NCBI GenBank assembly: GCA_963626615.1
Contig: CAVFYD010000001.1
Span: forward strand, 1,012-65,011
From: Sphaerochaetaceae bacterium
Lineage (GTDB): Bacteria; Spirochaetota; Spirochaetia; Sphaerochaetales; Sphaerochaetaceae
DNA length: 64,000 nt
Direction of reading: 5' to 3'
Below are positions 3,962 through 13,981 of the stretch, piece after piece. The notes under the pieces were generated by a model. That model saw nothing but the letters and a program-made list of their open reading frames with translations. It had not been told where the DNA came from and ran no database searches. Made by a program: the position numbers and the translations under genes. Each line of letters begins with the position of its first letter. Position 1 is the stretch's first letter.

Positions 3962-5194
3962 GTGGTTACAATGAACAGTGACGCGAAACTCATAATAGAT
4001 GAAGCACTGAGGGATTCTCTTCCCGACAGCGCAGTGAAGAAGGCACTCGATAAAATTACATTCAGAAGCGGTAAGCTCGTACTCGTTGCAGTCGGCAAGG
4101 CCGCATGGCAGATGGCAGCGGCAGCATATGCTGTTCTCGGCGAGCGTATCGACAGCGGCTGCGTGATCACGAAGTACGGACACAGCAAAGGGCCTGTCGG
4201 CTCTCTCGAGATATATGAAGCGGGACACCCCGTATCCGATGCGAATACCTATAAGGCAACGGAGAGATGCATATCTCTTGTGAGCAGTCTCACTTCCGCT
4301 GACAACGTCCTTTTCCTCATAAGCGGAGGCGGCAGCGCTCTCTTCGAGAAGCCTCTTGTAACGGAAGAGGAGAACCAGGACATAACACGGCAGCTTCTTG
4401 CATGCGGGGCCGACATCGTCGAGATGAATACCATCCGCAAGAGGCTTTCAGCCGTCAAGGGCGGAAAGTTCGCTCTTTTGTGTGCTCCTGCCCACGTTGA
4501 TGCCATTATCCTCTCCGACATCATCGGAGATCCTCTCGATATGATAGCATCCGGTCCGGCCTATCCCGATTCCTCGACAACCGGAGAGGCCCTGGCCATT
4601 ATCAGAAAATATAATCTGAAGCTCTCGCCGGAGGCAGAGAAACTTATCGCTCAGCCTACTCCGAAGACGCTCGATAACGTCACATCCTACGTAACGGGAA
4701 GCGTGAAGCAGCTCTGCCTCTCTGCTGAAAGAACGGCAAAAAAACTCGGCTACGAGACTGTATTCCTCACATCATCCCTCAACTGCGAGGCGAGAGAGGC
4801 CGGAATGTTCCTCTCTGCCATTGCACGTGACAACGCATCCTCGGGCCGTAAGCTTGCCTTCATAGCTGGCGGTGAGACAGTTGTACATCTTACAGGAAAA
4901 GGCAAGGGCGGAAGAAACCAGGAAATCGCACTTGCAGCGGCTGCCGGAATAAAAGGTCTTGATAAGTGCTCGATATTCTCAGTCGGAAGCGACGGCACTG
5001 ACGGTCCGACAGATGCCGCAGGGGGCTGTGTCGACCAGGACACCGCCTCCGTTCTGGAGGAGAAGGGAATAGACATCTCTCAAGTCCTCCGGAACAACGA
5101 CGCCTACAATGCCCTCAAGGCAGCGGATGCTCTCGTCATGACAGGTCCGACAGGAACAAACGTCAACGACCTCACGGTTCTTCTTCTGAATTGA
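3962..5194 (+). CDS. glycerate 2-kinase / hydroxypyruvate reductase-like protein (MOFRL family)
   Basis: Motifs LFLISGGGSALFE and GGETVVHLTGKGKGGRNQEIALAAA are typical of the TtuD/GckA family. The start may be the ATG at 3971 rather than the GTG at 3962. Confidence 0.85.
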   Translation: MVTMNSDAKLIIDEALRDSLPDSAVKKALDKITFRSGKLVLVAVGKAAWQMAAAAYAVLGERIDSGCVITKYGHSKGPVGSLEIYEAGHPVSDANTYKATERCISLVSSLTSADNVLFLISGGGSALFEKPLVTEEENQDITRQLLACGADIVEMNTIRKRLSAVKGGKFALLCAPAHVDAIILSDIIGDPLDMIASGPAYPDSSTTGEALAIIRKYNLKLSPEAEKLIAQPTPKTLDNVTSYVTGSVKQLCLSAERTAKKLGYETVFLTSSLNCEAREAGMFLSAIARDNASSGRKLAFIAGGETVVHLTGKGKGGRNQEIALAAAAGIKGLDKCSIFSVGSDGTDGPTDAAGGCVDQDTASVLEEKGIDISQVLRNNDAYNALKAADALVMTGPTGTNVNDLTVLLLN

Positions 5195-5201
5195 AACCAT
5201 C

Positions 5202-5232
5202 AATCCCGGGCCTGCCCGGGATTAGCTTTTGC
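5202..5232 (+). terminator. hairpin terminator candidate after the glycerate kinase gene
   Basis: AATCCCGGG-cctg-CCCGGGATT stem followed by a weak T tract (agcttttgcc). Confidence 0.45.
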
Positions 5233-5442
5233 CTCAGACTTGAAAAAGATGTCAGTCGGAGAATGTCATTAATCCGCCGAGGTTCCTCTTCGGTTGTGCT
5301 GACAACAGCCGTCAAACCATACGAGGACTCAGGAGAGCCCCCCGGGAGGCGCTATTGTTATCGAAACGGGCATAATAGTTATCGACATGAGAGGTGACAG
5401 AGAGTACCATAGCTATGTAACTTAACCGGTTTAGGAGGGATT

Positions 5443-6747
5443 ATGGACACTTTCCGGCAGACACTTCTCAGAACAGCGCTCCCGATAACGGGGCAGAGCA
5501 TTCTCCAGTCTTCGTTCTCGCTCATCGACCAGCTGATGGTCGGACAGCTAGGAACAGTTGCCGTTGCGGCAGTGGGAATCGGCGGCAAGTTCTCGTCGTT
5601 CTATACTGTTCTCCTTGCATCCCTAATTTCCGCCTACGGGATAATGCTGAGTCAGTATGTCGGGGCCGGAGACAGCAACGGGGAAGCGAAATCATTCCGT
5701 CTTGCATCTCTTTTCTCGCTTGTTCTCACACTTCTTTTTCTTATTCCCTCACTTGTTATCCCGAAAGGGGTGATGAGCCTCTATATAACCGACAAAGAGA
5801 CAATAGATCTCTCTTCGGAGTATCTCCTCATCGTGAGCCTCGGTTTTCCTGCCCAGGCCCTGACACTCATCTTCTCGACAATCCTGAGGTCTCACGAGAA
5901 GGCCCAGATGCCCCTGTATGCCTCACTCATATCTGCTGTGGTCAACAGCGGTCTCAACTACGTCTTCATTTTTGTCTTCAATCGGGGTGTCACGGGAGCC
6001 GCAGTGGCGACTGTAATCAGCCAGTACACGGCGGCCGCTCTTGTTATCATTCCCTCTATCCGAATGATGAAAAAGGCAGACGGCACAAAGGATGGGGAGT
6101 ACGTGAAGGCATTCTTCCGCATATTCCTTCCCATCGTATTCTGCGAGTTCTTCTGGGGACTTGGGGAGAATGTCTATGCCTCGGTCTACGGACATCTCGG
6201 AACCGGGAGCGCAGCGGCATACTCTCTCACGGGGCCCGTGCAGTCTCTTATGACAGGAGCGCTCACAGGCCTGAGCCAGGCTTCCGGAATCCTCATCGGA
6301 AAGGAACTCGGGAGAAAGGACTATGAAAACGCATACAGCCACAGTTTGATAATCATCAGGTACGGCGTTCTCTTCTCCGTAATTCTCTCCGTTATCCTCA
6401 TATTCGTCAGACGATACTATCTTTCGCTGTATTGTGTCGGTGAAGAGGTGTCATATCTTGCGTCAATGCTTCTTTTCGTCTACTCGTTCTATGCTCCCGT
6501 CAAGGTCAGCAATATGATAATAGGCGGGGGGATAATCAGGGCCGGCGGCAGAACCGATCTCAGCATGTATGTCGATGTGATAGGCACGTGGGGAATCGGA
6601 GTGCCTCTTGCATTCCTTTCGTCACGTCTTCTTCATTTCCCGGTCTACCTTGTATATGCAGCGCTCTCCTTCGAGGAAGTTGTCAGACTCATAATCGTCT
6701 GCCGTATCTTCGTGAAGAAAAAGTGGATGGAAAGCATCACAGCCTGA
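5443..6747 (+). CDS. MATE family efflux transporter
   Basis: 434 aa and about 12 predicted TM helices. N-terminus LRTALPITGQSILQSSFSLIDQLMVGQLG is typical of the MatE family. Confidence 0.9.
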   Translation: MDTFRQTLLRTALPITGQSILQSSFSLIDQLMVGQLGTVAVAAVGIGGKFSSFYTVLLASLISAYGIMLSQYVGAGDSNGEAKSFRLASLFSLVLTLLFLIPSLVIPKGVMSLYITDKETIDLSSEYLLIVSLGFPAQALTLIFSTILRSHEKAQMPLYASLISAVVNSGLNYVFIFVFNRGVTGAAVATVISQYTAAALVIIPSIRMMKKADGTKDGEYVKAFFRIFLPIVFCEFFWGLGENVYASVYGHLGTGSAAAYSLTGPVQSLMTGALTGLSQASGILIGKELGRKDYENAYSHSLIIIRYGVLFSVILSVILIFVRRYYLSLYCVGEEVSYLASMLLFVYSFYAPVKVSNMIIGGGIIRAGGRTDLSMYVDVIGTWGIGVPLAFLSSRLLHFPVYLVYAALSFEEVVRLIIVCRIFVKKKWMESITA

Positions 6748-6784: not shown

Positions 6785-7085
6785 ATGTACGATGACAGTA
6801 TGACGAAGGAAATCTTTGAAAAGGCCCTGGGCATCACTGCCATGGTTCATGAAAGACGGGGAACTTGAGAGTGACGGCGTCTTCCGCATCACAATCGACT
6901 TCGACGACGCTGCTTTCCCCGATATGAGGGACAGCGTGGAGAAGGAGTGGGGGCACCTCAGCTTCTTCCAGTATCCCTGTGTCATAAAAGCGAGAATCCC
7001 GAGAGTGAAGGATGAAAGCGGTAAAACATCACTCGTCAGTCCCCCGTGGAAGAAGACAGTCGGGAGCTTTGTTTCACTGAAGTAG
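6785..7085 (+). pseudogene. decayed N-terminal fragment of an ISL3-family transposase
   Basis: Frame 1 reads MYDDSMTKEIFEKALGITA. After a frameshift near 6840 the text continues PWFMKDGELESDGVFRITIDFDD...EKEWGHLSFFQYPCVIKARIPRVKDESGKTSLVSPPWKKTVGSF. This follows the ISL3 N-terminal pattern (ILGL..PW.V..V.......I.I......W.HL..FQ....L.A.IPRVKC...G.....VPWA...S.FT). The zinc-finger cysteines are lost and there is no DDE domain. Confidence 0.6.
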
Positions 7086-7098
7086 AGGAGAAGAAAAG

Positions 7099-7812
7099 AT
7101 GAGTTACAGGACAGTTGAGGCGAGACTTATGGAACTTGCCGACTCTGACGGCTTTGATGCCCTCTACGAAAACCCCAGGAAGGTCTATGACTATCTCATA
7201 AAGGAGAAAGGGGCAGACAGGTCACTCTGCCGTGCGGTTGCGTACGCACTCCTCTTTGACGTCGGAAGAGGGGGAATCGGGGAGAAGGGAAGCCTGAGAC
7301 GGAGAATAAACACACTCTCCCTCAAAGAGGACGTGAGTATATCTCTTTACAGGATATTCTCCGCTCTCTGTTCCGGAGAGCATCTCTCTGCGCTCTCCGA
7401 AGATAAGAAGAAGGCCCTTGATGACTTCTGCTCCCGGGAGCATACATTCAGAATTTCCGGTGAGGCCGACTGGCATTCGAAGAAACATTACACACTGCAC
7501 TGCTCTTACCGCTATGAACTCACCCTGGCCGTGAGTGACAGGAAGAAGGTTGAGGAAGATACCCTGGAGTTCCTCAGTAAGCCTGGCTCTGCAACATCTG
7601 ATGATATTGCTTCATATTACAGGAATGAAATAAAGAAAGCTGTAGATGATGACTTTGATTATTTCTGCTCCGACATCGAAGATTACTACGAGCCGGCTGT
7701 CGAAGAGTATGACGGTGAAAGCGGGAACAGTGCCATAGATGAATACTTAGAGGAGCACGGTCTCGTTCTTGTCGCGTCTTCCTTCCGTGGCGATACGGAC
7801 AGTGACTGGTGA
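7099..7812 (+). CDS. hypothetical protein, paralog of the 9985-10797 product (cassette gene A)
   Basis: 237 aa. RBS gaggag lies 8 nt upstream. It shares blocks with gene C: DGFDALYENPRKVYDYL/NGFEYLYKNPVILKEAL, AVAYALLFDVG/AFIYAIMSGVG, EEHGLVLVASSF/GDHGLVPLTASF. I recognise no family. Confidence 0.7.
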   Translation: MSYRTVEARLMELADSDGFDALYENPRKVYDYLIKEKGADRSLCRAVAYALLFDVGRGGIGEKGSLRRRINTLSLKEDVSISLYRIFSALCSGEHLSALSEDKKKALDDFCSREHTFRISGEADWHSKKHYTLHCSYRYELTLAVSDRKKVEEDTLEFLSKPGSATSDDIASYYRNEIKKAVDDDFDYFCSDIEDYYEPAVEEYDGESGNSAIDEYLEEHGLVLVASSFRGDTDSDW

Positions 7813-7815
7813 CAT

Positions 7816-9891
7816 ATGGAAAAGGCAGACAGAAAGAAGATAGAGGAGATCATCAGACTCAGAACGCGTGAGCTGACAGGGGAGAAGTACAGCCAGGAAA
7901 GCGGTGAAGTCTTCACCCGTGACTGCACGGAGCGGAAGATTCGCTCAGCCGAATATTTCGCTCCGATTCTCGAAAAGAAGTTCGGAGAAAAATACCCCGG
8001 TCTCGACTGGAATGAGGTAAGTGCCAGTTTAACTGTCCTGAGCAGTTACAGTCCGGATACCATCGACAGAGGAGATAATTTTTTGTATGCAGTCGCATAT
8101 TTCATCCTCGATTCCGTTAATTTTGCTCAGGGCAGCAATGACAGAATGGACGAGCTTAAACGGATTTTGAGGGAATGTTCGGCTGTAAACCTTGTGGATG
8201 GCGATCTGTATGATGGCTTTGCAAGGAAACGCCTGATTTATGCCGTACATCCTCTCTATCATCGGAATTTCGCAGATGACATAGTGGAGCTTATCTGTTT
8301 CAGAAATCTCGATTTCGTCAATTACAGAAATGAAAAGAGGAGCTTGGGAGGTTACAGCTTCATCTGTGACGGCTGGACGACTTCGCTTGAGAAGAAAAAG
8401 CCCTGTGACAGTGATTTCTCCGTCAGAAAGTACTTCGACGATATGATGGCACTCGTACCCGAAAGCGATAAGGAAGATGCCATGGAAGCCTACAGAAAGC
8501 TCTTTTTCGAGATGATTGACTGCTATCTTGATTCAGAGAGAAAGCTTGAGAAGCAGGAAGCGAAGCTGAAGGCGAAGAGAGAGTATCTTGATTTTCAGAT
8601 CGGGGAAGCAGTCCGCATGGGAATGAAAATGCCTCAGGAGGAACGTCTTTCTCTCCTGAAAAAGGACGATGAGCTTCAGGAAAAGGAATCAGCATTCAGT
8701 TTCAAGAGGATAAATTTCAACGACACGTTCGCCTATGGTTCCTTCTCAGAACCCCGTCTTCTTCATCGTGAGAGCAGCGCCTTCGGGAACATAAGCGTAT
8801 CTGATCCGTACAAGGTCATAGCAGGTTACTTCTTCCTTCTTGAAAAGGGTGACGATTATGCGTGGCTGCTTTCAGCTTCCACTGCGACACTCGGATTTGC
8901 CTCCGGTCTTCTTCCCTGGGCCGAATGCGAATGGGATGCGGATGAAGACGGATGCAGAATGCATAATAAGGAAGAAGAGTATTCTGTATGCGAAAACTTC
9001 TATAAACCCGTTATCGATCCCTCATCCCTCGGCCTTGACGATACGTTCACTCCTTCTCTTAGCCCGGCAAAGTATGTTTATCTGAAGACTGAGGCCATCC
9101 CGCCCCGTTATTCAGTCACACTTCCCGACAGGGATAAGCTTCTTCCGGTTCTGGGAGAAGATCTCACATCGTCTCTCGAAAAGAGCTACGTGGCATCCTA
9201 TCATGGAACGCATTCGGTAGAACCGGAGAACACCTTTCTCGAAGATTATGTCAAGCTCATGAATCAGCTGAGGAATGCGAAGAAGGAGAATGCAGAGCTC
9301 AGCGGGAAACTGATGGAGAAGGAAAATGCCGGAGGAAAAAGCGGAAAGGAAGAGAAAAGCCCTGATGAAAGAGTTCAGAACGAACTGAATGCACTGAGAG
9401 AGAGCATGTCACTCATCGAGAAGGAAAACAGCATACTCCAGCGTGAACTCGAAAAGGGAAAAAGCGAGATTGCAAGGCTGAAAAAGGAACACAGGGATGA
9501 GAAGGAAGAACTCGATTCTCTGCGTGAACTTGTCTTTGCCTCACGTACGGACAGTGCCGGGGATGCAGATAAGGACAGTCTGAGCATGGAGTGGCCGTAC
9601 GAGAATGTGCACAGCATAGCCGTCATCGGCGGACACACGGACTGGATAAGCAAGATGAAGGCGCTCCTTCCGTCTGTGAAGTTCTACGGCGACAGAATCC
9701 CCGACAGGGATGCGCTCAAGCATACTGAAGTCGTCTGGTTCCAGACTAAGTTCGCTCTGTCTCATCCGACGTATTACAAGGTGATTGATATGGCAAAGAA
9801 CCTTAACCTTTCCATCCGGTATTTCCTTTCTCCCGGCGTATACAGTTCGGCAGAGGCCATTGCCGATGATGACAGAAAACGGGAATTATGA
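7816..9891 (+). CDS. large coiled-coil protein with a DUF2325-like C-terminal domain (cassette gene B)
   Basis: 691 aa, starting 3 nt after the gene A stop. Heptad-rich K/E stretches lie near aa 240-300 and 480-575. The C-terminus HSIAVIGGHTDWISKMKALLPSVKFYGDRIPDRDALKHTEVVWFQTKFALSHPTYYKVIDMAKNLNLSIRYF fits my recollection of the DUF2325 pattern (vlivGG...f......l...D.V...t..vSH......k..ak....v.f). Confidence 0.75.
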   Translation: MEKADRKKIEEIIRLRTRELTGEKYSQESGEVFTRDCTERKIRSAEYFAPILEKKFGEKYPGLDWNEVSASLTVLSSYSPDTIDRGDNFLYAVAYFILDSVNFAQGSNDRMDELKRILRECSAVNLVDGDLYDGFARKRLIYAVHPLYHRNFADDIVELICFRNLDFVNYRNEKRSLGGYSFICDGWTTSLEKKKPCDSDFSVRKYFDDMMALVPESDKEDAMEAYRKLFFEMIDCYLDSERKLEKQEAKLKAKREYLDFQIGEAVRMGMKMPQEERLSLLKKDDELQEKESAFSFKRINFNDTFAYGSFSEPRLLHRESSAFGNISVSDPYKVIAGYFFLLEKGDDYAWLLSASTATLGFASGLLPWAECEWDADEDGCRMHNKEEEYSVCENFYKPVIDPSSLGLDDTFTPSLSPAKYVYLKTEAIPPRYSVTLPDRDKLLPVLGEDLTSSLEKSYVASYHGTHSVEPENTFLEDYVKLMNQLRNAKKENAELSGKLMEKENAGGKSGKEEKSPDERVQNELNALRESMSLIEKENSILQRELEKGKSEIARLKKEHRDEKEELDSLRELVFASRTDSAGDADKDSLSMEWPYENVHSIAVIGGHTDWISKMKALLPSVKFYGDRIPDRDALKHTEVVWFQTKFALSHPTYYKVIDMAKNLNLSIRYFLSPGVYSSAEAIADDDRKREL

Positions 9892-9927
9892 AGATTCCGC
9901 TCTCAAAAAGGACGATAATTACATCTT

Positions 9928-9956
9928 CTTGCCCACGCACTGTTTTCAAATTATGT
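9928..9956 (+). promoter_or_regulatory. possible internal sigma70-like promoter ahead of cassette gene C (TTGCCC-17 nt-TATGTT)
   Basis: Hexamers at 9928-9933 and 9951-9956 with a 17-nt spacer, inside the 93-nt B-C gap. Confidence 0.3.
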
Positions 9957-9984
9957 TAGAGCCAGAAAGGCCTGTCTCGGAGGG

Positions 9985-10797
9985 ATGAAAATGGACGACT
10001 ATCTGACAAAATACAGAAAAGCTGCGGCAATGCTGAAGGCTCTCATGGAGAACCAGAGAGACCTCGGACTCTCTGTCAAGGAGCTGAGCGACTCATCGAA
10101 GGTATGCGAGAACATCGCAGATATCGTAACTGACATGATAGACAGGAACGGATTCGAGTATCTTTATAAGAATCCTGTCATCCTGAAGGAGGCGCTTCCG
10201 CACTCTGATGACACGGAGAGGAAGATTTCGAATGCCTTCATCTATGCGATAATGTCGGGAGTTGGAGAGAAGAAGAAGGAGTCCATAAGTGCAGTCAGGA
10301 CTGAAATCGAGAGCCTTTCTCTCACTAAGGCCATGCTGCATTTCCTTGACGTGATCTTCTCCTCAATATGGGAAGAATACTTTCTCAAGGATGCAGACAA
10401 GCGAGAGTGGGGCGGCTGCGAAGTCTTCTGCTTCCGGACATGGGATACAGAGTTCTGCGGCGGGGCCGTATGGACAAGCAGGGATGGAACGAAAAAGGTG
10501 GTATCCTCCTTTACATGCCGTGTGAAGTTCAAGGCCGAGAACATGGCCATCATCATGTCGGACATCGGTGACGATCACTACGCTTCGGCAGATGCAATCG
10601 CCGTAAAATACAGGAAGGGACTTGAGGAGTTCATCTCTGCAGACTTCAAGCAGTGGTGCGAGAGCGGGAAGAATCCCCCGAAGGCCGAGAACTACGACCT
10701 CCTGCGCGGCCCTGCGGCACTCCAGTTCTACCTTGGAGACCACGGCCTCGTGCCTCTGACAGCTTCCTTCGACGCTCACAGCAGGGATATGGAATGA
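9985..10797 (+). CDS. hypothetical protein, paralog of the 7099-7812 product (cassette gene C)
   Basis: 270 aa. The RBS ggaggg is adjacent, so the second ATG at 9991 may be the true start. Similarity blocks are listed under gene A. Confidence 0.7.
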   Translation: MKMDDYLTKYRKAAAMLKALMENQRDLGLSVKELSDSSKVCENIADIVTDMIDRNGFEYLYKNPVILKEALPHSDDTERKISNAFIYAIMSGVGEKKKESISAVRTEIESLSLTKAMLHFLDVIFSSIWEEYFLKDADKREWGGCEVFCFRTWDTEFCGGAVWTSRDGTKKVVSSFTCRVKFKAENMAIIMSDIGDDHYASADAIAVKYRKGLEEFISADFKQWCESGKNPPKAENYDLLRGPAALQFYLGDHGLVPLTASFDAHSRDME

Positions 10798-10801
10798 AAG
10801 G

Positions 10802-10835
10802 AGCCGCCTTCGGAAACGGAGACGGCTGTTTTTTT
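10802..10835 (+). terminator. rho-independent terminator after cassette gene C
   Basis: AGCCG...CGGCT stem enclosing ccttcgg, followed by a T7 run at 10829-10835. Confidence 0.55.
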
Positions 10836-11024
10836 ATCGCTAATTCCTTATCTTATTATCTGATATGAAAGCAATGTTACTATTTATAGTGTTATTATGA
10901 TAACATTTTCAGGATATTTTATGCAAAAATCTGCATTATTATTCAAAAAGTATTTATTTTTTGGAAGTTTTGTGTGATACTTCTCCCCATACTTAAATGC
11001 ATTTTCATGCACACAGGAGAGATT

Positions 11025-12266
11025 ATGAAAAAAACTATCGCTTTACTCGTTGTTTTAAGCCTTGTTTTCTCAGTTTTCGCTGCAGGTGCACAGGAGGCAT
11101 CATCCTCAGCTGCTGCTACTGCTGCTGCAACAACTTCTTCCGAAGCTGCAGAGAACTTCCACATCGGCATCGTCACAGGTTCTGTTTCCCAGAGCGAGGA
11201 TGACCGCCGCGGTGCTGAAGCTTTCCAGGCTAAGTACGGTGAAGATATGGTCAAGCTTGCAATTTACCCTGACAACTTCACTGAAGAGCTCGAGACGACT
11301 ATCCAGACAATCGTCAATCTCGCAGACGATCCTCTCATGAAGGCTATCATCGTCAACCAGGCAGTTCCCGGAACAGCTGAAGCTTTCAAGCAGATCAAGG
11401 AAAAGAGACCTGACATCCTCTGCTTTGCAGGCGAAGCTCACGAAGACCTTCCAATCATCGGTGCGGCTGCTGACCTTGTTGCAAACAACGACTTTGTTTC
11501 ACGCGGTTACCTCATCATCAGAACTGCTCATGAACTCGGATGCGACACATTCGTTCACATCTCCTTCCCGCGCCACATGGCTTATGAGACAATGTCACGC
11601 CGTGTTGCAATCATGAAGAAGACCTGTGAAGAGTTCGGCATGAAGTTCGTTCTCGAGACAGCTCCGGACCCGACAACAGACGTAGGTGTTGCAGGTGCTC
11701 AGGCTTACATCCTCGAAAAGGTTCCAGAGTGGATCGAAAAATACGGAAAGAATGCTGCATTCTTCTGCACGAACGATGCTCATACAGAACCTCTTCTCAA
11801 GCAGCTCCTCACATACGGCGGTTACTTCATCGAAGCTGACCTTCCGTCACCTCTCATGGGATATCCTGGAGCACTCGGACTCGACCTCACAGAAGAAGCA
11901 GGCGACTTCGAGAAGATTCTTGCAAAGGTTGAAGCTGCAATCGTCGAGCAGGGCGGTGCAGGAAGATTCGGAACATGGGCTTACTCATACGGTTACACAG
12001 TTTCCGCAGGTCTTGCCGAGCACGCTTACAACGTCATCACAGGAAAGAGCGAGCTTCTCGATATGGATGACCTGGCTGAGGCTTACAAGGTCTATTCACC
12101 GAATGCAAGCTGGAACGGAGCTAACTATGTCAACGCTTCGACAGGTGTCAAGCTCGACAACGTCTTCCTTGTTTACCAGGATACATATGTCATGGGCAAG
12201 GACGGAGACAAGTATATGCATTCGACAGAAGTCGAAGTTCCGGACTGGGCTTACACAACAATGTAA
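11025..12266 (+). CDS. ABC transporter substrate-binding protein (DUF3798-type, from memory), secreted (signal peptide, no lipobox cysteine)
   Basis: RBS aggaga then ATG at 11025. Signal peptide MKKTIALLVVLSLVFSVFAAGAQ. An Ala/Ser/Thr linker, then FHIGIVTGSVSQSEDDRRGAEAF. It is followed by ATPase and permease genes. I prefer this start over the ORF-track start at 10974. Confidence 0.8.
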   Translation: MKKTIALLVVLSLVFSVFAAGAQEASSSAAATAAATTSSEAAENFHIGIVTGSVSQSEDDRRGAEAFQAKYGEDMVKLAIYPDNFTEELETTIQTIVNLADDPLMKAIIVNQAVPGTAEAFKQIKEKRPDILCFAGEAHEDLPIIGAAADLVANNDFVSRGYLIIRTAHELGCDTFVHISFPRHMAYETMSRRVAIMKKTCEEFGMKFVLETAPDPTTDVGVAGAQAYILEKVPEWIEKYGKNAAFFCTNDAHTEPLLKQLLTYGGYFIEADLPSPLMGYPGALGLDLTEEAGDFEKILAKVEAAIVEQGGAGRFGTWAYSYGYTVSAGLAEHAYNVITGKSELLDMDDLAEAYKVYSPNASWNGANYVNASTGVKLDNVFLVYQDTYVMGKDGDKYMHSTEVEVPDWAYTTM

Positions 12267-12290
12267 GACTCCCTTCAGGGACAATGGAGA

Positions 12291-12318
12291 GGAAGGCCGG
12301 CAAAGGCCTTCCTTTCTT
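12291..12318 (+). terminator. intra-operon hairpin / attenuator after the binding-protein gene
   Basis: GGAAGGCC-ggcaaa-GGCCTTCC followed by tttctt. This position is typical for raising binding-protein mRNA over the downstream genes. Confidence 0.5.
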
Positions 12319-12385
12319 AAATTTTCAGACGGAGGGAAGAAAATCTTCCTTCGGCCTGAAAATTTAAAACACTGGAGTAGATATT

Positions 12386-13981
12386 ATGGATAACAAAGCT
12401 CCTTTACTGGAGGTAAGGAACGTCAGCAAGGATTTCTTCGGAAACAAGGTCCTTTCAGACATCAACTTTACCATGGAGAAAGGGCAGGTCTTGGGCCTTG
12501 TCGGAGAGAACGGCGCGGGTAAGAGCACCCTCATGAAGATTCTCTTCGGTATGGACGTGATCAGGGAAACCGGAGGATACGGTGGTGACATCATAATCGA
12601 CGGCGAGACTGTCCGCTTCAATACACCGTTCGACGCCCTGGCAGCCGGAATAGGAATGGTCCATCAGGAATTCTCACTCATCCCCGGATTCACTGCTGCC
12701 GAAAACATCGTTCTCAACAGGGAACCTGAAAAGCCGACGTTCGTTGCAAACATCTTCGGAAGCAGACTTGATCAGCTTGACCGGAAGGAGATGAACAGGA
12801 TTGCCGAGGAATCAATCGAGAAGATGGGTGTTCATATCGACAAGAACATGGTCATCTCCGAGATGCCTGTCGGGCACAAGCAGTTTACGGAAATCGCAAG
12901 AGAGCTCAGCAAGGAGAACATGAAGATTCTCATCCTCGACGAGCCTACTGCTGTTCTTACAGAGAAGGAAGCCGAAGCACTCCTCGATTCAATCAGGGGT
13001 ATTGCGGCAAAGGGAATCTCCGTCATCTTCATCACGCACCGTCTTCAGGAAATCCTCTCTGTCTGTGACAAAGTCCTCGTAATGAGGGACGGTCTCATCG
13101 TCAGGGATGTAAAGGCAAAGGATACATCCGTTGCCGAAATCTCGGCATGGATGGTCGGACGCGGCAAGAGCGAGGAGAAGAAGCAAGAGGTTGTGAAGGA
13201 CAAGAAAGTCTCGAGCGACGAAACCGTGCTCTCAATTTCCCGCTTATGGGTCGACATGCCCGGTGAGCTCGTACGAGATGTCACCCTGGATGTCAGAAAG
13301 GGCGAGATTCTCGGTATAGGAGGACTCGCTGGTCAGGGAAAACTCGGTATCCCGAACGGAATCATGGGGCTCTATGACGCCGGAGGAAAGGTCACTTTCG
13401 AGGGAAAGGAGATTCCTCTCAATACTCCGCGTAAGTGCCTTGACAGCAAAATGGCATTCGTCAGTGAGGACAGACGTGGTGTCGGACTTCTTCTCGACGA
13501 GACTCTCGAGTGGAACATCGCATTCTCTGCAATGCAGGTCAACAACAAGTTCCTGAAGAAGTATCTCGGCGGGGCCATCAAGTGGCGTGATGACAAGGCA
13601 ATCAACGAGGTAACCGAAAAGTACATCGACGAACTCAAGATAAAATGCACGTCTTCGAAGCAGAAGGCAAAGGAACTCAGTGGCGGTAACCAGCAGAAGG
13701 TGTGTCTCAGCAAGGCATTCGCACTCGAACCGAAACTTCTCTTCGTCAGTGAACCGACGCGCGGTATCGACGTCGGCGCAAAGGCCCTTGTCCTTGACGC
13801 CCTCAGGGCATTCAACAGGGAAAACGGCGTCACTGTTGTCATGATCTCTTCCGAGCTCGAGGAGCTCAGAAGTGTATGTGACCGTATCGCAATCGTATCG
13901 GGCGGAAAGATTGCGGGTATTCTCCCGGCATCCTCACCGAGCGAGGATTTCGGTCTTCTGATGGTCAGCAACGTAAAGTAG
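12386..13981 (+). CDS. ABC transporter ATP-binding protein with duplicated ATPase domains (sugar/nucleoside type)
   Basis: 531 aa. Walker A GENGAGKST, signature LSGGNQQKV, Walker B ILILDEPT and LLFVSEPTRGID. Confidence 0.9.
   Translation: MDNKAPLLEVRNVSKDFFGNKVLSDINFTMEKGQVLGLVGENGAGKSTLMKILFGMDVIRETGGYGGDIIIDGETVRFNTPFDALAAGIGMVHQEFSLIPGFTAAENIVLNREPEKPTFVANIFGSRLDQLDRKEMNRIAEESIEKMGVHIDKNMVISEMPVGHKQFTEIARELSKENMKILILDEPTAVLTEKEAEALLDSIRGIAAKGISVIFITHRLQEILSVCDKVLVMRDGLIVRDVKAKDTSVAEISAWMVGRGKSEEKKQEVVKDKKVSSDETVLSISRLWVDMPGELVRDVTLDVRKGEILGIGGLAGQGKLGIPNGIMGLYDAGGKVTFEGKEIPLNTPRKCLDSKMAFVSEDRRGVGLLLDETLEWNIAFSAMQVNNKFLKKYLGGAIKWRDDKAINEVTEKYIDELKIKCTSSKQKAKELSGGNQQKVCLSKAFALEPKLLFVSEPTRGIDVGAKALVLDALRAFNRENGVTVVMISSELEELRSVCDRIAIVSGGKIAGILPASSPSEDFGLLMVSNVK

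Follow-up and report, generated by a model that had tools for sequence, protein, structure and literature searches.

The locus described here raises the question of what is encoded by three adjacent genes that lie between an exporter gene and a transporter operon of a gut spirochaete and fall into no characterised family. The genes are found in a stretch of 64,000 nucleotides (nt) from a Sphaerochaetaceae bacterium (GenBank assembly GCA_963626615.1, contig CAVFYD010000001.1, positions 1,012 to 65,011 of the forward strand), which was analysed as a whole and is called the window; all positions refer to it unless another locus is named. A first-pass annotation, made from the sequence, had described three co-directional genes of 237, 691 and 270 amino acids (aa) with gaps of 3 and 93 nt, and the list of open reading frames (ORFs) gave the same coordinates and lengths: gene A at 7099–7812, gene B at 7816–9891 and gene C at 9985–10797, all on the + strand, separated by 7813–7815 and 9892–9984. 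As set out below, the three genes make up an old module, inherited together and confined to one clade of gut spirochaetes, for which a role in genetic conflict is put forward tentatively.

To judge from their conservation across loci and from ratios of nonsynonymous to synonymous divergence (dN/dS) of 0.07–0.21, A, B and C are genuine genes and not chance ORFs. Antisense ORFs within the three genes (for example, window 9544–9765, − strand) also surfaced as conserved clusters in an all-against-all comparison of the ORFs at the loci, and were discarded as shadows of the sense genes. A and C had been annotated as paralogs, and BLASTP aligned them over about 228 aa with 25% identity (E=2e-18).

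The signals around the genes were then read. A Shine-Dalgarno-like GAGGAG is seen at 7085–7090 (+ strand), 8 nt 5′ of the ATG of A, and the 3-nt spacing from the stop codon of A to the ATG of B suggests that the two could be translationally coupled. The 93-nt spacer between B and C (9892–9984, + strand) carries a GGAGGG Shine-Dalgarno sequence ahead of C and is devoid of stable or terminator-like structure (fold z=+1.29). Immediately 3′ of C, an intrinsic terminator occupies 10802–10835 on the + strand, with a GC-rich hairpin (10802–10827) followed by a U7 run; the hairpin has a folding energy of −19.3 kcal/mol (z=−3.26), and 0 of 200 shuffled sequences were equally stable. Given the unstructured spacer and the strong hairpin after C, the single terminator that had been proposed for all three genes is plausible. 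When the spacers of six loci (window, L005, L007, L001, L008 and L010) were aligned, a partly conserved block was seen, ATTATGAA.ATTCCGC.CTCA ... ATAATTACAT ... CTTGCC, which may serve as a promoter or operator inside the cassette and let C be regulated separately.

The association of the three genes was followed by hidden Markov model (HMM) scans of 23 sources, namely the window and 22 fetched loci. The close B family comprises 16 full-length clusters among 5.8 billion proteins, and the A/C family about 10 clusters. Among the 11 distinct loci with both flanks readable, three carry the full triad (the window, L007 and L010, with B proteins 47% and 38% identical to that of the window in the latter two), six carry A and B only (L003, L004, L009, L012, L014 and L015), and two carry B and C only (L001, on the same contig as L016 and sampled a second time as the same allele in L002, and L008); B was never found on its own. 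Orthologs of A lie upstream of B in 12 loci. As B always stands beside at least one A/C gene, and the triad recurs with B proteins only 38–47% identical, the adjacency is not accidental.

In distance trees, the downstream C-type proteins formed one clade that included the protein of the basal triad locus L010. Read on the B tree, this pattern indicates an ancestral triad from which C would have been lost once and A once, in independent events. By the pattern of loss, either paralog appears to be dispensable, never both, and A and C may do overlapping jobs on B.

The chromosomal site was examined by an all-against-all comparison of the flanking ORFs. A glutamate dehydrogenase (GDH) gene lies upstream in the window, L001, L002, L007, L008, L010 and L018, directly preceding A in L010 and L018. 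Downstream, an operon for a DUF3798 substrate-binding protein (SBP), an ATP-binding cassette (ABC) ATPase and two permeases is found in the window, L001, L005, L007, L008, L019, L020 and L022, and in inverted orientation in L012. Between loci, these flanking proteins are highly similar (82–85% identity for GDH, 88–95% for the SBP and 79–94% for the ABC ATPase), compared with 38–47% for B (73% in its closest relative), 28–58% for A and 49–93% for C, the last diverging more slowly than A and B.

The dN/dS ratio of B was 0.14–0.21 by the Nei-Gojobori method, and its dN exceeded that of the ABC ATPase by a factor of about 12. Synonymous divergence was also higher, with a dS between the window and L005 of 1.2 for B and 0.29 for the SBP, a contrast that may be exaggerated by the codon bias of highly expressed flanking genes and from which recombination is not claimed. 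Positive selection was not detected, as dN/dS lay at 0.06–0.33 in all scorable 60-codon windows (one was saturated). The module diverges much faster than its flanks while under purifying selection, as would be seen if old alleles were exchanged at a fixed site or if the clock were very fast.

Several members of the B family are on contigs of metagenome-assembled genomes with non-spirochaete labels (L007, L008, L010, L012, L017 and L018, all from bins named "H076xx cleanbin" and assigned to Lachnospiraceae, Acutalibacteraceae, Eggerthellaceae, Muribaculaceae, Comamonas or Ruminococcus). The flanks of L007, L008, L010, L012 and L018 (GDH, DUF3798 SBP and ABC ATPase) are 79–95% identical to those of the window and of Spirochaetaceae and Sphaerochaetaceae contigs, and these bins are most likely contaminated by spirochaete contigs.

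The cassette had also been taken for horizontally acquired cargo, from its position between transporters and beside a decayed ISL3 transposase. The flanks were correctly named, with a MatE exporter at 5443–6747 upstream and the ABC operon downstream. The transposase fragment (6816–7085, + strand) was likewise correctly identified, matching annotated ISL3 transposases by tblastn at E=1e-11 to 1e-7 over 92% of its length and giving weak profile matches to Zn_ribbon_ISL3 and NF033550; it ends 13 nt before the ATG of A, not 14 as had been counted. In place of an intact DDE transposase of about 400 aa with inverted repeats, only the N-terminal ~89 aa are present, the zinc-ribbon cysteines are lost and the Pfam scan of this ORF gave no match to DDE_Tnp_ISL3. 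It is a dead remnant and not an active element, adjacent to the module and outside it.

The inference of horizontal cargo did not survive the comparison with relatives. The module is at the same chromosomal site in them, the comparison of flanking ORFs found no counterpart of the ISL3 fragment at this position in the other loci, and the cassette has a G+C content of 0.45–0.51 that matches its flanks. The remnant was thus ruled out as a sign of recent acquisition by synteny and composition, and the cassette is not recent cargo at the window locus. In L010 and L018 GDH directly precedes A, and the window has a glycerate kinase gene, the MatE gene and the ISL3 stub inserted there; the remnant is therefore incidental to the cassette. 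The interval from GDH to B is itself a small variable site: in the window the extra glycerate kinase (DUF4147/MOFRL) and MatE genes occupy 3962–6747, and in L001 an SBP_bac_1 gene takes the place of A.

A module kept at one site could be part of the ordinary physiology of the lineage. It might form a cellular complex in which B has a structural, cytoskeletal or regulatory role, with A and C as its adaptors and a possible tie to the nitrogen or transport genes next to it, its fast evolution then following from weak constraint. The fixed position between GDH and the DUF3798/ABC operon in at least eight loci is what such a complex would show, as are the flank-like G+C content, the lack of adjacent mobility genes other than the dead ISL3 fragment, the purifying selection, and three cytoplasmic proteins with no enzymatic signature. 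We nevertheless consider it unlikely, because A and B also occur in unrelated contexts that have neither GDH nor the ABC operon (L003, L004, L014 and L015), either paralog can be lost, and B is about 40% identical where its neighbours are 90% identical. Moreover, a role in spirochaete cell biology is hard to square with the distant homologs of B on integrative and conjugative elements, and with its C-terminal unit on phage-plasmids of Firmicutes, both described below.

The proteins themselves were compared with known families. None of the three gave a significant match in Pfam, NCBIfam or PADLOC, and all are acidic and have no hydrophobic segments, from which a cytoplasmic location is predicted. 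A, the upstream-type member of the A/C family, has an isoelectric point (pI) of 4.7, falling to 4.4 in its C-terminal half, no transmembrane segment, and no family in PHROGs either. The AlphaFold2 model of C (mean predicted local distance difference test score, pLDDT, of 82.6) consists of an N-terminal helical extension of about 35 aa, a helical half up to about residue 150 and an alpha+beta half with strands at 152–164, 171–184 and 255–268. A Foldseek search of this model against the PDB gave no significant match (best E=0.66), and an SPFH/FliL-like label for the alpha+beta half was dropped (E≥0.7). The possibility that A and C are split-off pieces of B was also discarded, as hhalign of the A/C against the B families revealed no relationship. 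A and C come from an old duplication within an orphan family of acidic proteins with two domains.

Protein B was modelled with AlphaFold2 from 16 homologs (pLDDT 73, predicted template modelling score 0.60). Its N-terminal part, residues 1 to about 435 (7816–9120, + strand), is an all-alpha domain with pLDDT mostly of 70–95, in which helices 216–267 and 274–307 form a long hairpin. A coiled-coil stalk follows (residues 439–574; 9130–9537, + strand), made of three long helices (439–467, 473–505 and 517–574) and ending in the conserved E565-L566-x-x-L569-R570-E571. The description of B as a coiled-coil protein thus holds, the modelled helices agreeing with coiled-coil noise matches in Pfam. An acidic, variable and disordered linker (residues 575–598; 9538–9609, + strand; pI 4.05) has pLDDT below 50 over residues 574–589 and ends in a conserved P594-Y595. 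The C-terminal domain (residues 599–691; 9610–9891, + strand) is basic (pI 8.9) and has a minimal, four-stranded Rossmann-like fold, with strands at 601–605, 639–642 and 666–669 among others, plus helices.

The alignments revealed invariant motifs in the alpha domain (R40-K41, L98-D99, R163-N164, R204, D330-P331-Y332, W350, L366-P367-W368 and P430-R431) and conserved residues in the C-terminal domain (G605-G606-H607, W610, W641-x-Q643, H650 and Y669). Over 135 sequences of the wider superfamily, R40, D99, R163, P331, W350, L366-P367-W368 and P430-R431 remained nearly invariant, together with E565-L566, G605-G606-H607, W641, Q643 and H650 in the stalk and C-terminus. Such invariant polar and aromatic positions suggest functional sites more than a passive scaffold. 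The term "scaffold-like" given to the large protein undersells it for this reason. A HEPN-like reading of R163-N164 was rejected, since no conserved histidine follows downstream.

For the alpha head, neither a Pfam family nor a PDB match by fold or sequence profile nor any other Foldseek match was found. Searches of PDB sequences with single sequences and with three profiles returned coiled-coil noise only. The sole real profile match of B was to the unannotated PHROGs family phrog_11092, over residues 518–674 (E=2e-14). Against the PDB, Foldseek found nothing for the B model at E≤1e-3; the best matches, at E≥0.1, were generic Rossmann 2x2 folds, PTS-IIB, receiver and TIR domains, and were assigned to the C-terminal domain because their length of about 100 residues suits that domain alone. 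The statement that none of the three proteins can be placed in a characterised family is in keeping with the negative outcome in Pfam, NCBIfam, PADLOC, PHROGs annotation, PDB sequences and Foldseek searches of the PDB.

The last 90 aa or so of B had been exempted from that statement and assigned to DUF2325. As a remote relationship this proved correct, although B of the window itself did not match the Pfam profile (PF10087) at E≤1. Five of the 16 close family members did so (best E=0.05), as did eight of ten distant relatives (E=8e-6 to 6e-3, 17–26.5 bits), and the superfamily consensus aligned collinearly over profile positions 2–92 of 94 with 28.7 bits (E=1.5e-6), all scores being below the gathering cut-off of 33.6 bits. 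The modelled four-stranded domain is in line with the small alpha/beta fold of the family, and the top Foldseek match in BFVD was a 484-aa phage protein named "DUF2325 domain-containing" in UniProt (E=1.2e-5). The link is therefore a valid remote relationship and not formal membership.

The function of DUF2325 is not known (PMC9426514), and searches of the literature for DUF2325, PF10087, ISCbt2 and the homolog accessions found no functional information. Its member Cj1384c of Campylobacter jejuni is a stand-alone, cysteine-rich, stress-induced protein of 104 aa (PMC9426514). With the DUF2325 proteins the domain of B has in common a small parallel alpha/beta fold in which strand 1 is followed by a glycine-rich turn and the helix after strand 3 starts with Ser or His. 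In contrast to Cj1384c it has no cysteines and is terminal to a 600-aa alpha domain and coiled coil. The relationship explains no mechanism.

Other folds were considered for the same domain. Foldseek aligned about 80–120 residues of it, at E=0.1–1 and probabilities up to 1.0, with TOPRIM, TIR, N-deoxyribosyltransferase (NDT) and PTS-IIB domains, and in particular with TOPRIM/DnaG primase domains at E=0.2–0.5 (probability 0.96–0.98). The catalytic residues of TOPRIM (E and DxD), TIR (E) and NDT (E) are not conserved in B, which has instead GGH after strand 1, WxQ(T/N) at strand 3, and H650. With no Foldseek match to any of these folds at E≤1e-3, the assignments were dropped.

The weak TOPRIM/DnaG likeness bears on a further explanation, namely that the module handles DNA in the maintenance of a mobile element (partition, replication or a chromosome-organising scaffold) and has become fixed in spirochaete chromosomes, the coiled coil bridging DNA or partners and the TOPRIM-like or DUF2325-like domain binding nucleotide or DNA. 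Such a role would fit the basic C-terminal domain, and also the fact that phage-plasmids and plasmids encode the unit of coiled coil and DUF2325-like domain; the long coiled coil recalls SMC proteins too, though through composition-driven matches only. This explanation appears quite improbable, since no par, rep or SMC-partner genes adjoin the module at any examined locus, the acidic TOPRIM residues are not conserved, curated plasmids and phages have no full-length alpha head, and such variability and loss of partners would not be expected of a chromosomal maintenance gene.

Comparison with described systems gave no closer fit. The large coiled-coil proteins LmuB of Lamassu and JetC of Wadjet are also accompanied by smaller subunits, evolve fast and are associated with islands; B differs in having no ABC-ATPase head, hinge or Walker motifs. 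No ATPase family was found in Pfam or NCBIfam, and the model runs from an alpha head over a stalk to a small Rossmann domain, unlike a folded-back SMC, so that B does not have the build of SMC-like proteins such as LmuB, JetC and MukB. Toxin-antitoxin (TA) and abortive-infection modules such as AbiE and HipBA likewise couple a small protein to a larger one and vary between close relatives, and at some loci AbiEi or HipA is found beside the A/B genes themselves; a duplicated small partner of 240–270 aa and a B of 691 aa are, however, far larger than classical TA pairs, and A, B and C matched no type II toxin or antitoxin family in Pfam, NCBIfam or PADLOC. The module is thus outside every described kind except for its remote link to DUF2325, and is new by default, not by a demonstrated mechanism.

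The nearest relatives in part of their length are the phrog_11092-type proteins, represented by PHICD211_20153 (phiCD211), CST013 (c-st), WP_002347493 (E. faecium) and A0A8S5RIN7 (virus sp. ctHG14). They share with B a unit of about 200 aa made up of coiled coil and C-terminal domain, as seen by the PHROGs match, by tblastn (E=1e-4 to 7e-11), by the superfamily HMM (E=1e-18 to 1e-30) and by Foldseek (E=1.2e-5). Unlike B, these uncharacterised proteins are 481–569 aa long, have N-termini unrelated to its own and no A/C-type neighbour, and are encoded on extrachromosomal elements in Firmicutes. The unit is in this way fused to unrelated N-termini on phage-plasmids of C. difficile and C. botulinum (phiCD211, c-st and D-1873) and on E. 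faecium plasmids. The gene for CST013 (L031, 5032–6522) is labelled "insertion sequence ISCbt2-a, truncated" in GenBank; no transposase features were seen in it, and the label may be wrong or the gene may travel with a repeat element.

When the alpha domain alone was used for an exhaustive HMM search, 304 representative homologs were retrieved at E≤1e-3, most of them 600–800 aa long, collinear with B and carrying the same C-terminal domain. The settings retrieved for these distant homologs are mobile: L034 has three large serine recombinases and IS1595, L038 a D12 methyltransferase block beside TraG/VirD4, L025 HipBA and ISL3, and L030 Y-family polymerase and Metallophos genes. At the loci recovered they are solo genes, with no conserved shared neighbour and no A/C relative nearby, a 268-aa neighbour in L030 having proved unrelated to A/C. 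Neither the A/C family nor the full-length alpha head was found in curated plasmids or phages, and the narrow B family has no relative in viral contigs.

Several further observations were made at these loci. Two genes downstream of the distant homolog in L030, a 569-aa ORF (10755–12461) combines a coiled coil and a DUF2325-like C-terminus with a different N-terminus and matches the superfamily HMM at E=3e-14, so that two such proteins are in one prophage- or ICE-like (integrative and conjugative element-like) block. Genes for calcineurin-like phosphoesterases (Metallophos) lie a few genes upstream of distant homologs in two unrelated mobile contexts (L030, 4793–6419; L034, 5432–6106), and L030 and L033, the latter an E. 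faecium plasmid, both have Y-family polymerase genes. In a Sphaerochaetaceae metagenome-assembled genome, the distant homolog of L025 (3593–4809) is about 2 kb from split ISL3 ORFs and HipBA; this echo of the ISL3 stub of the window may be a coincidence.

Defence, TA or candidate defence genes are neighbours of divergent A-B pairs that lie away from the GDH/ABC site. L003 has AbiEi downstream (E=7e-74) and an ATPase_2/DUF87-like ATPase upstream, the latter also found upstream in L013; in L011 an SNF2+SWIM helicase matching DpdE/ZorD (E=9e-153) is downstream; in L014 a DUF4238 gene adjoins A and an AAA_14-DUF4143 ATPase is two genes away; and in L015 a PDC-S01-type AAA_14-DUF4143 ATPase (E=1.7e-54) is upstream and HipA downstream. 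The association with defence genes at these five loci is anecdotal; it and the link to mobile elements are seen in other family members and not at the window locus, where the cassette has no defence-gene neighbours.

Together, the synteny, the hypervariability, the defence and TA neighbours, the mobile homologs, the C-terminal unit on phage-plasmids and the invariant motifs point to a conflict module, whose function would lie in defence against phages or mobile elements, in abortive infection or in something akin to addiction. We propose this tentatively, as the reading that we favour among those considered: the module itself is well supported, and the case for conflict is circumstantial.

A number of results weigh against the proposal. 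B lacks a P-loop, and no effector domain could be recognised, be it a nuclease, a protease, a pore or the catalytic residues of TIR. A, B and C gave no meaningful match in PADLOC-DB v2.0.0, as anticipated by the remark that the arrangement resembles no described defence system, and 60 superfamily members gave only weak LmuB/JetC matches (E≥1e-4), most likely driven by coiled coil and composition. The defence neighbours come from a small sample of five loci, not set against a genomic background rate, and several of them are no more than candidates for defence genes. The fixed site between housekeeping genes and the flank-like G+C content make the module look vertically inherited, both in the window and in its closest relatives. 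Finally, dN/dS stays far under 1, and a non-essential gene that is weakly constrained can also evolve fast.

The same mobile neighbourhoods could also be read in the opposite sense, with the B superfamily neutralising host immunity as counter-defence cargo of mobile elements, and the spirochaete copies being domesticated descendants. In L038 the B homolog is in a block with an orphan D12 methyltransferase beside conjugation genes, the related protein of phiCD211 is encoded about 5 kb from an annotated antirestriction protein, and the very acidic C-terminal half of A resembles DNA-mimic inhibitors. These associations are drawn from single loci, a three-domain protein of 700 aa would be atypical of anti-defence proteins, A/C is absent from mobile elements and the spirochaete copies are chromosomal and positionally stable; such a role is thus very unlikely. 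The rest of the probability belongs to none of the four explanations (conflict, cellular complex, DNA handling and anti-defence).

If A-B-C is a conflict module, its working could be pictured as follows. B would dimerise through its coiled-coil stalk; sensing or catalysis would fall to the alpha head, and the binding of a small ligand or assembly to the DUF2325-like domain, through GGH, WxQ and H650. The small A/C protein would bind B in a fixed proportion and would restrain or tune it until a trigger arrives. Where a locus has two genes the small protein would form a homodimer, whereas in triads A and C would pair as a heterodimer or take turns as partners of B. B would then be the sensor and effector, and A and C its interchangeable regulators; since either paralog can be lost, their roles probably overlap in part, with one surface of B serving both.

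Beyond the spirochaetes, the B superfamily, of at least 304 clusters, might be the core of an undescribed class of conflict systems on integrative and conjugative elements, with the C-terminal unit also on phage-plasmids and plasmids, and the spirochaete triad might be a chromosomally fixed version that has recruited a duplicated orphan regulator; this extension is conceivable and rather doubtful.

Should the conflict function be true, the module would represent a protein architecture that is new among immunity or addiction systems, and a new kind of partnership, with two ancient, individually dispensable paralogs flanking an effector, in gut spirochaetes, whose defence biology has hardly been studied by experiment. 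It would also provide a first functional handle for DUF2325, and one for the unannotated coiled-coil proteins of about 480–570 aa on the phage-plasmids of C. difficile and C. botulinum and on E. faecium plasmids. If the function is cellular, the module would still show clearly how a hypervariable locus can be held at one place in the chromosome.

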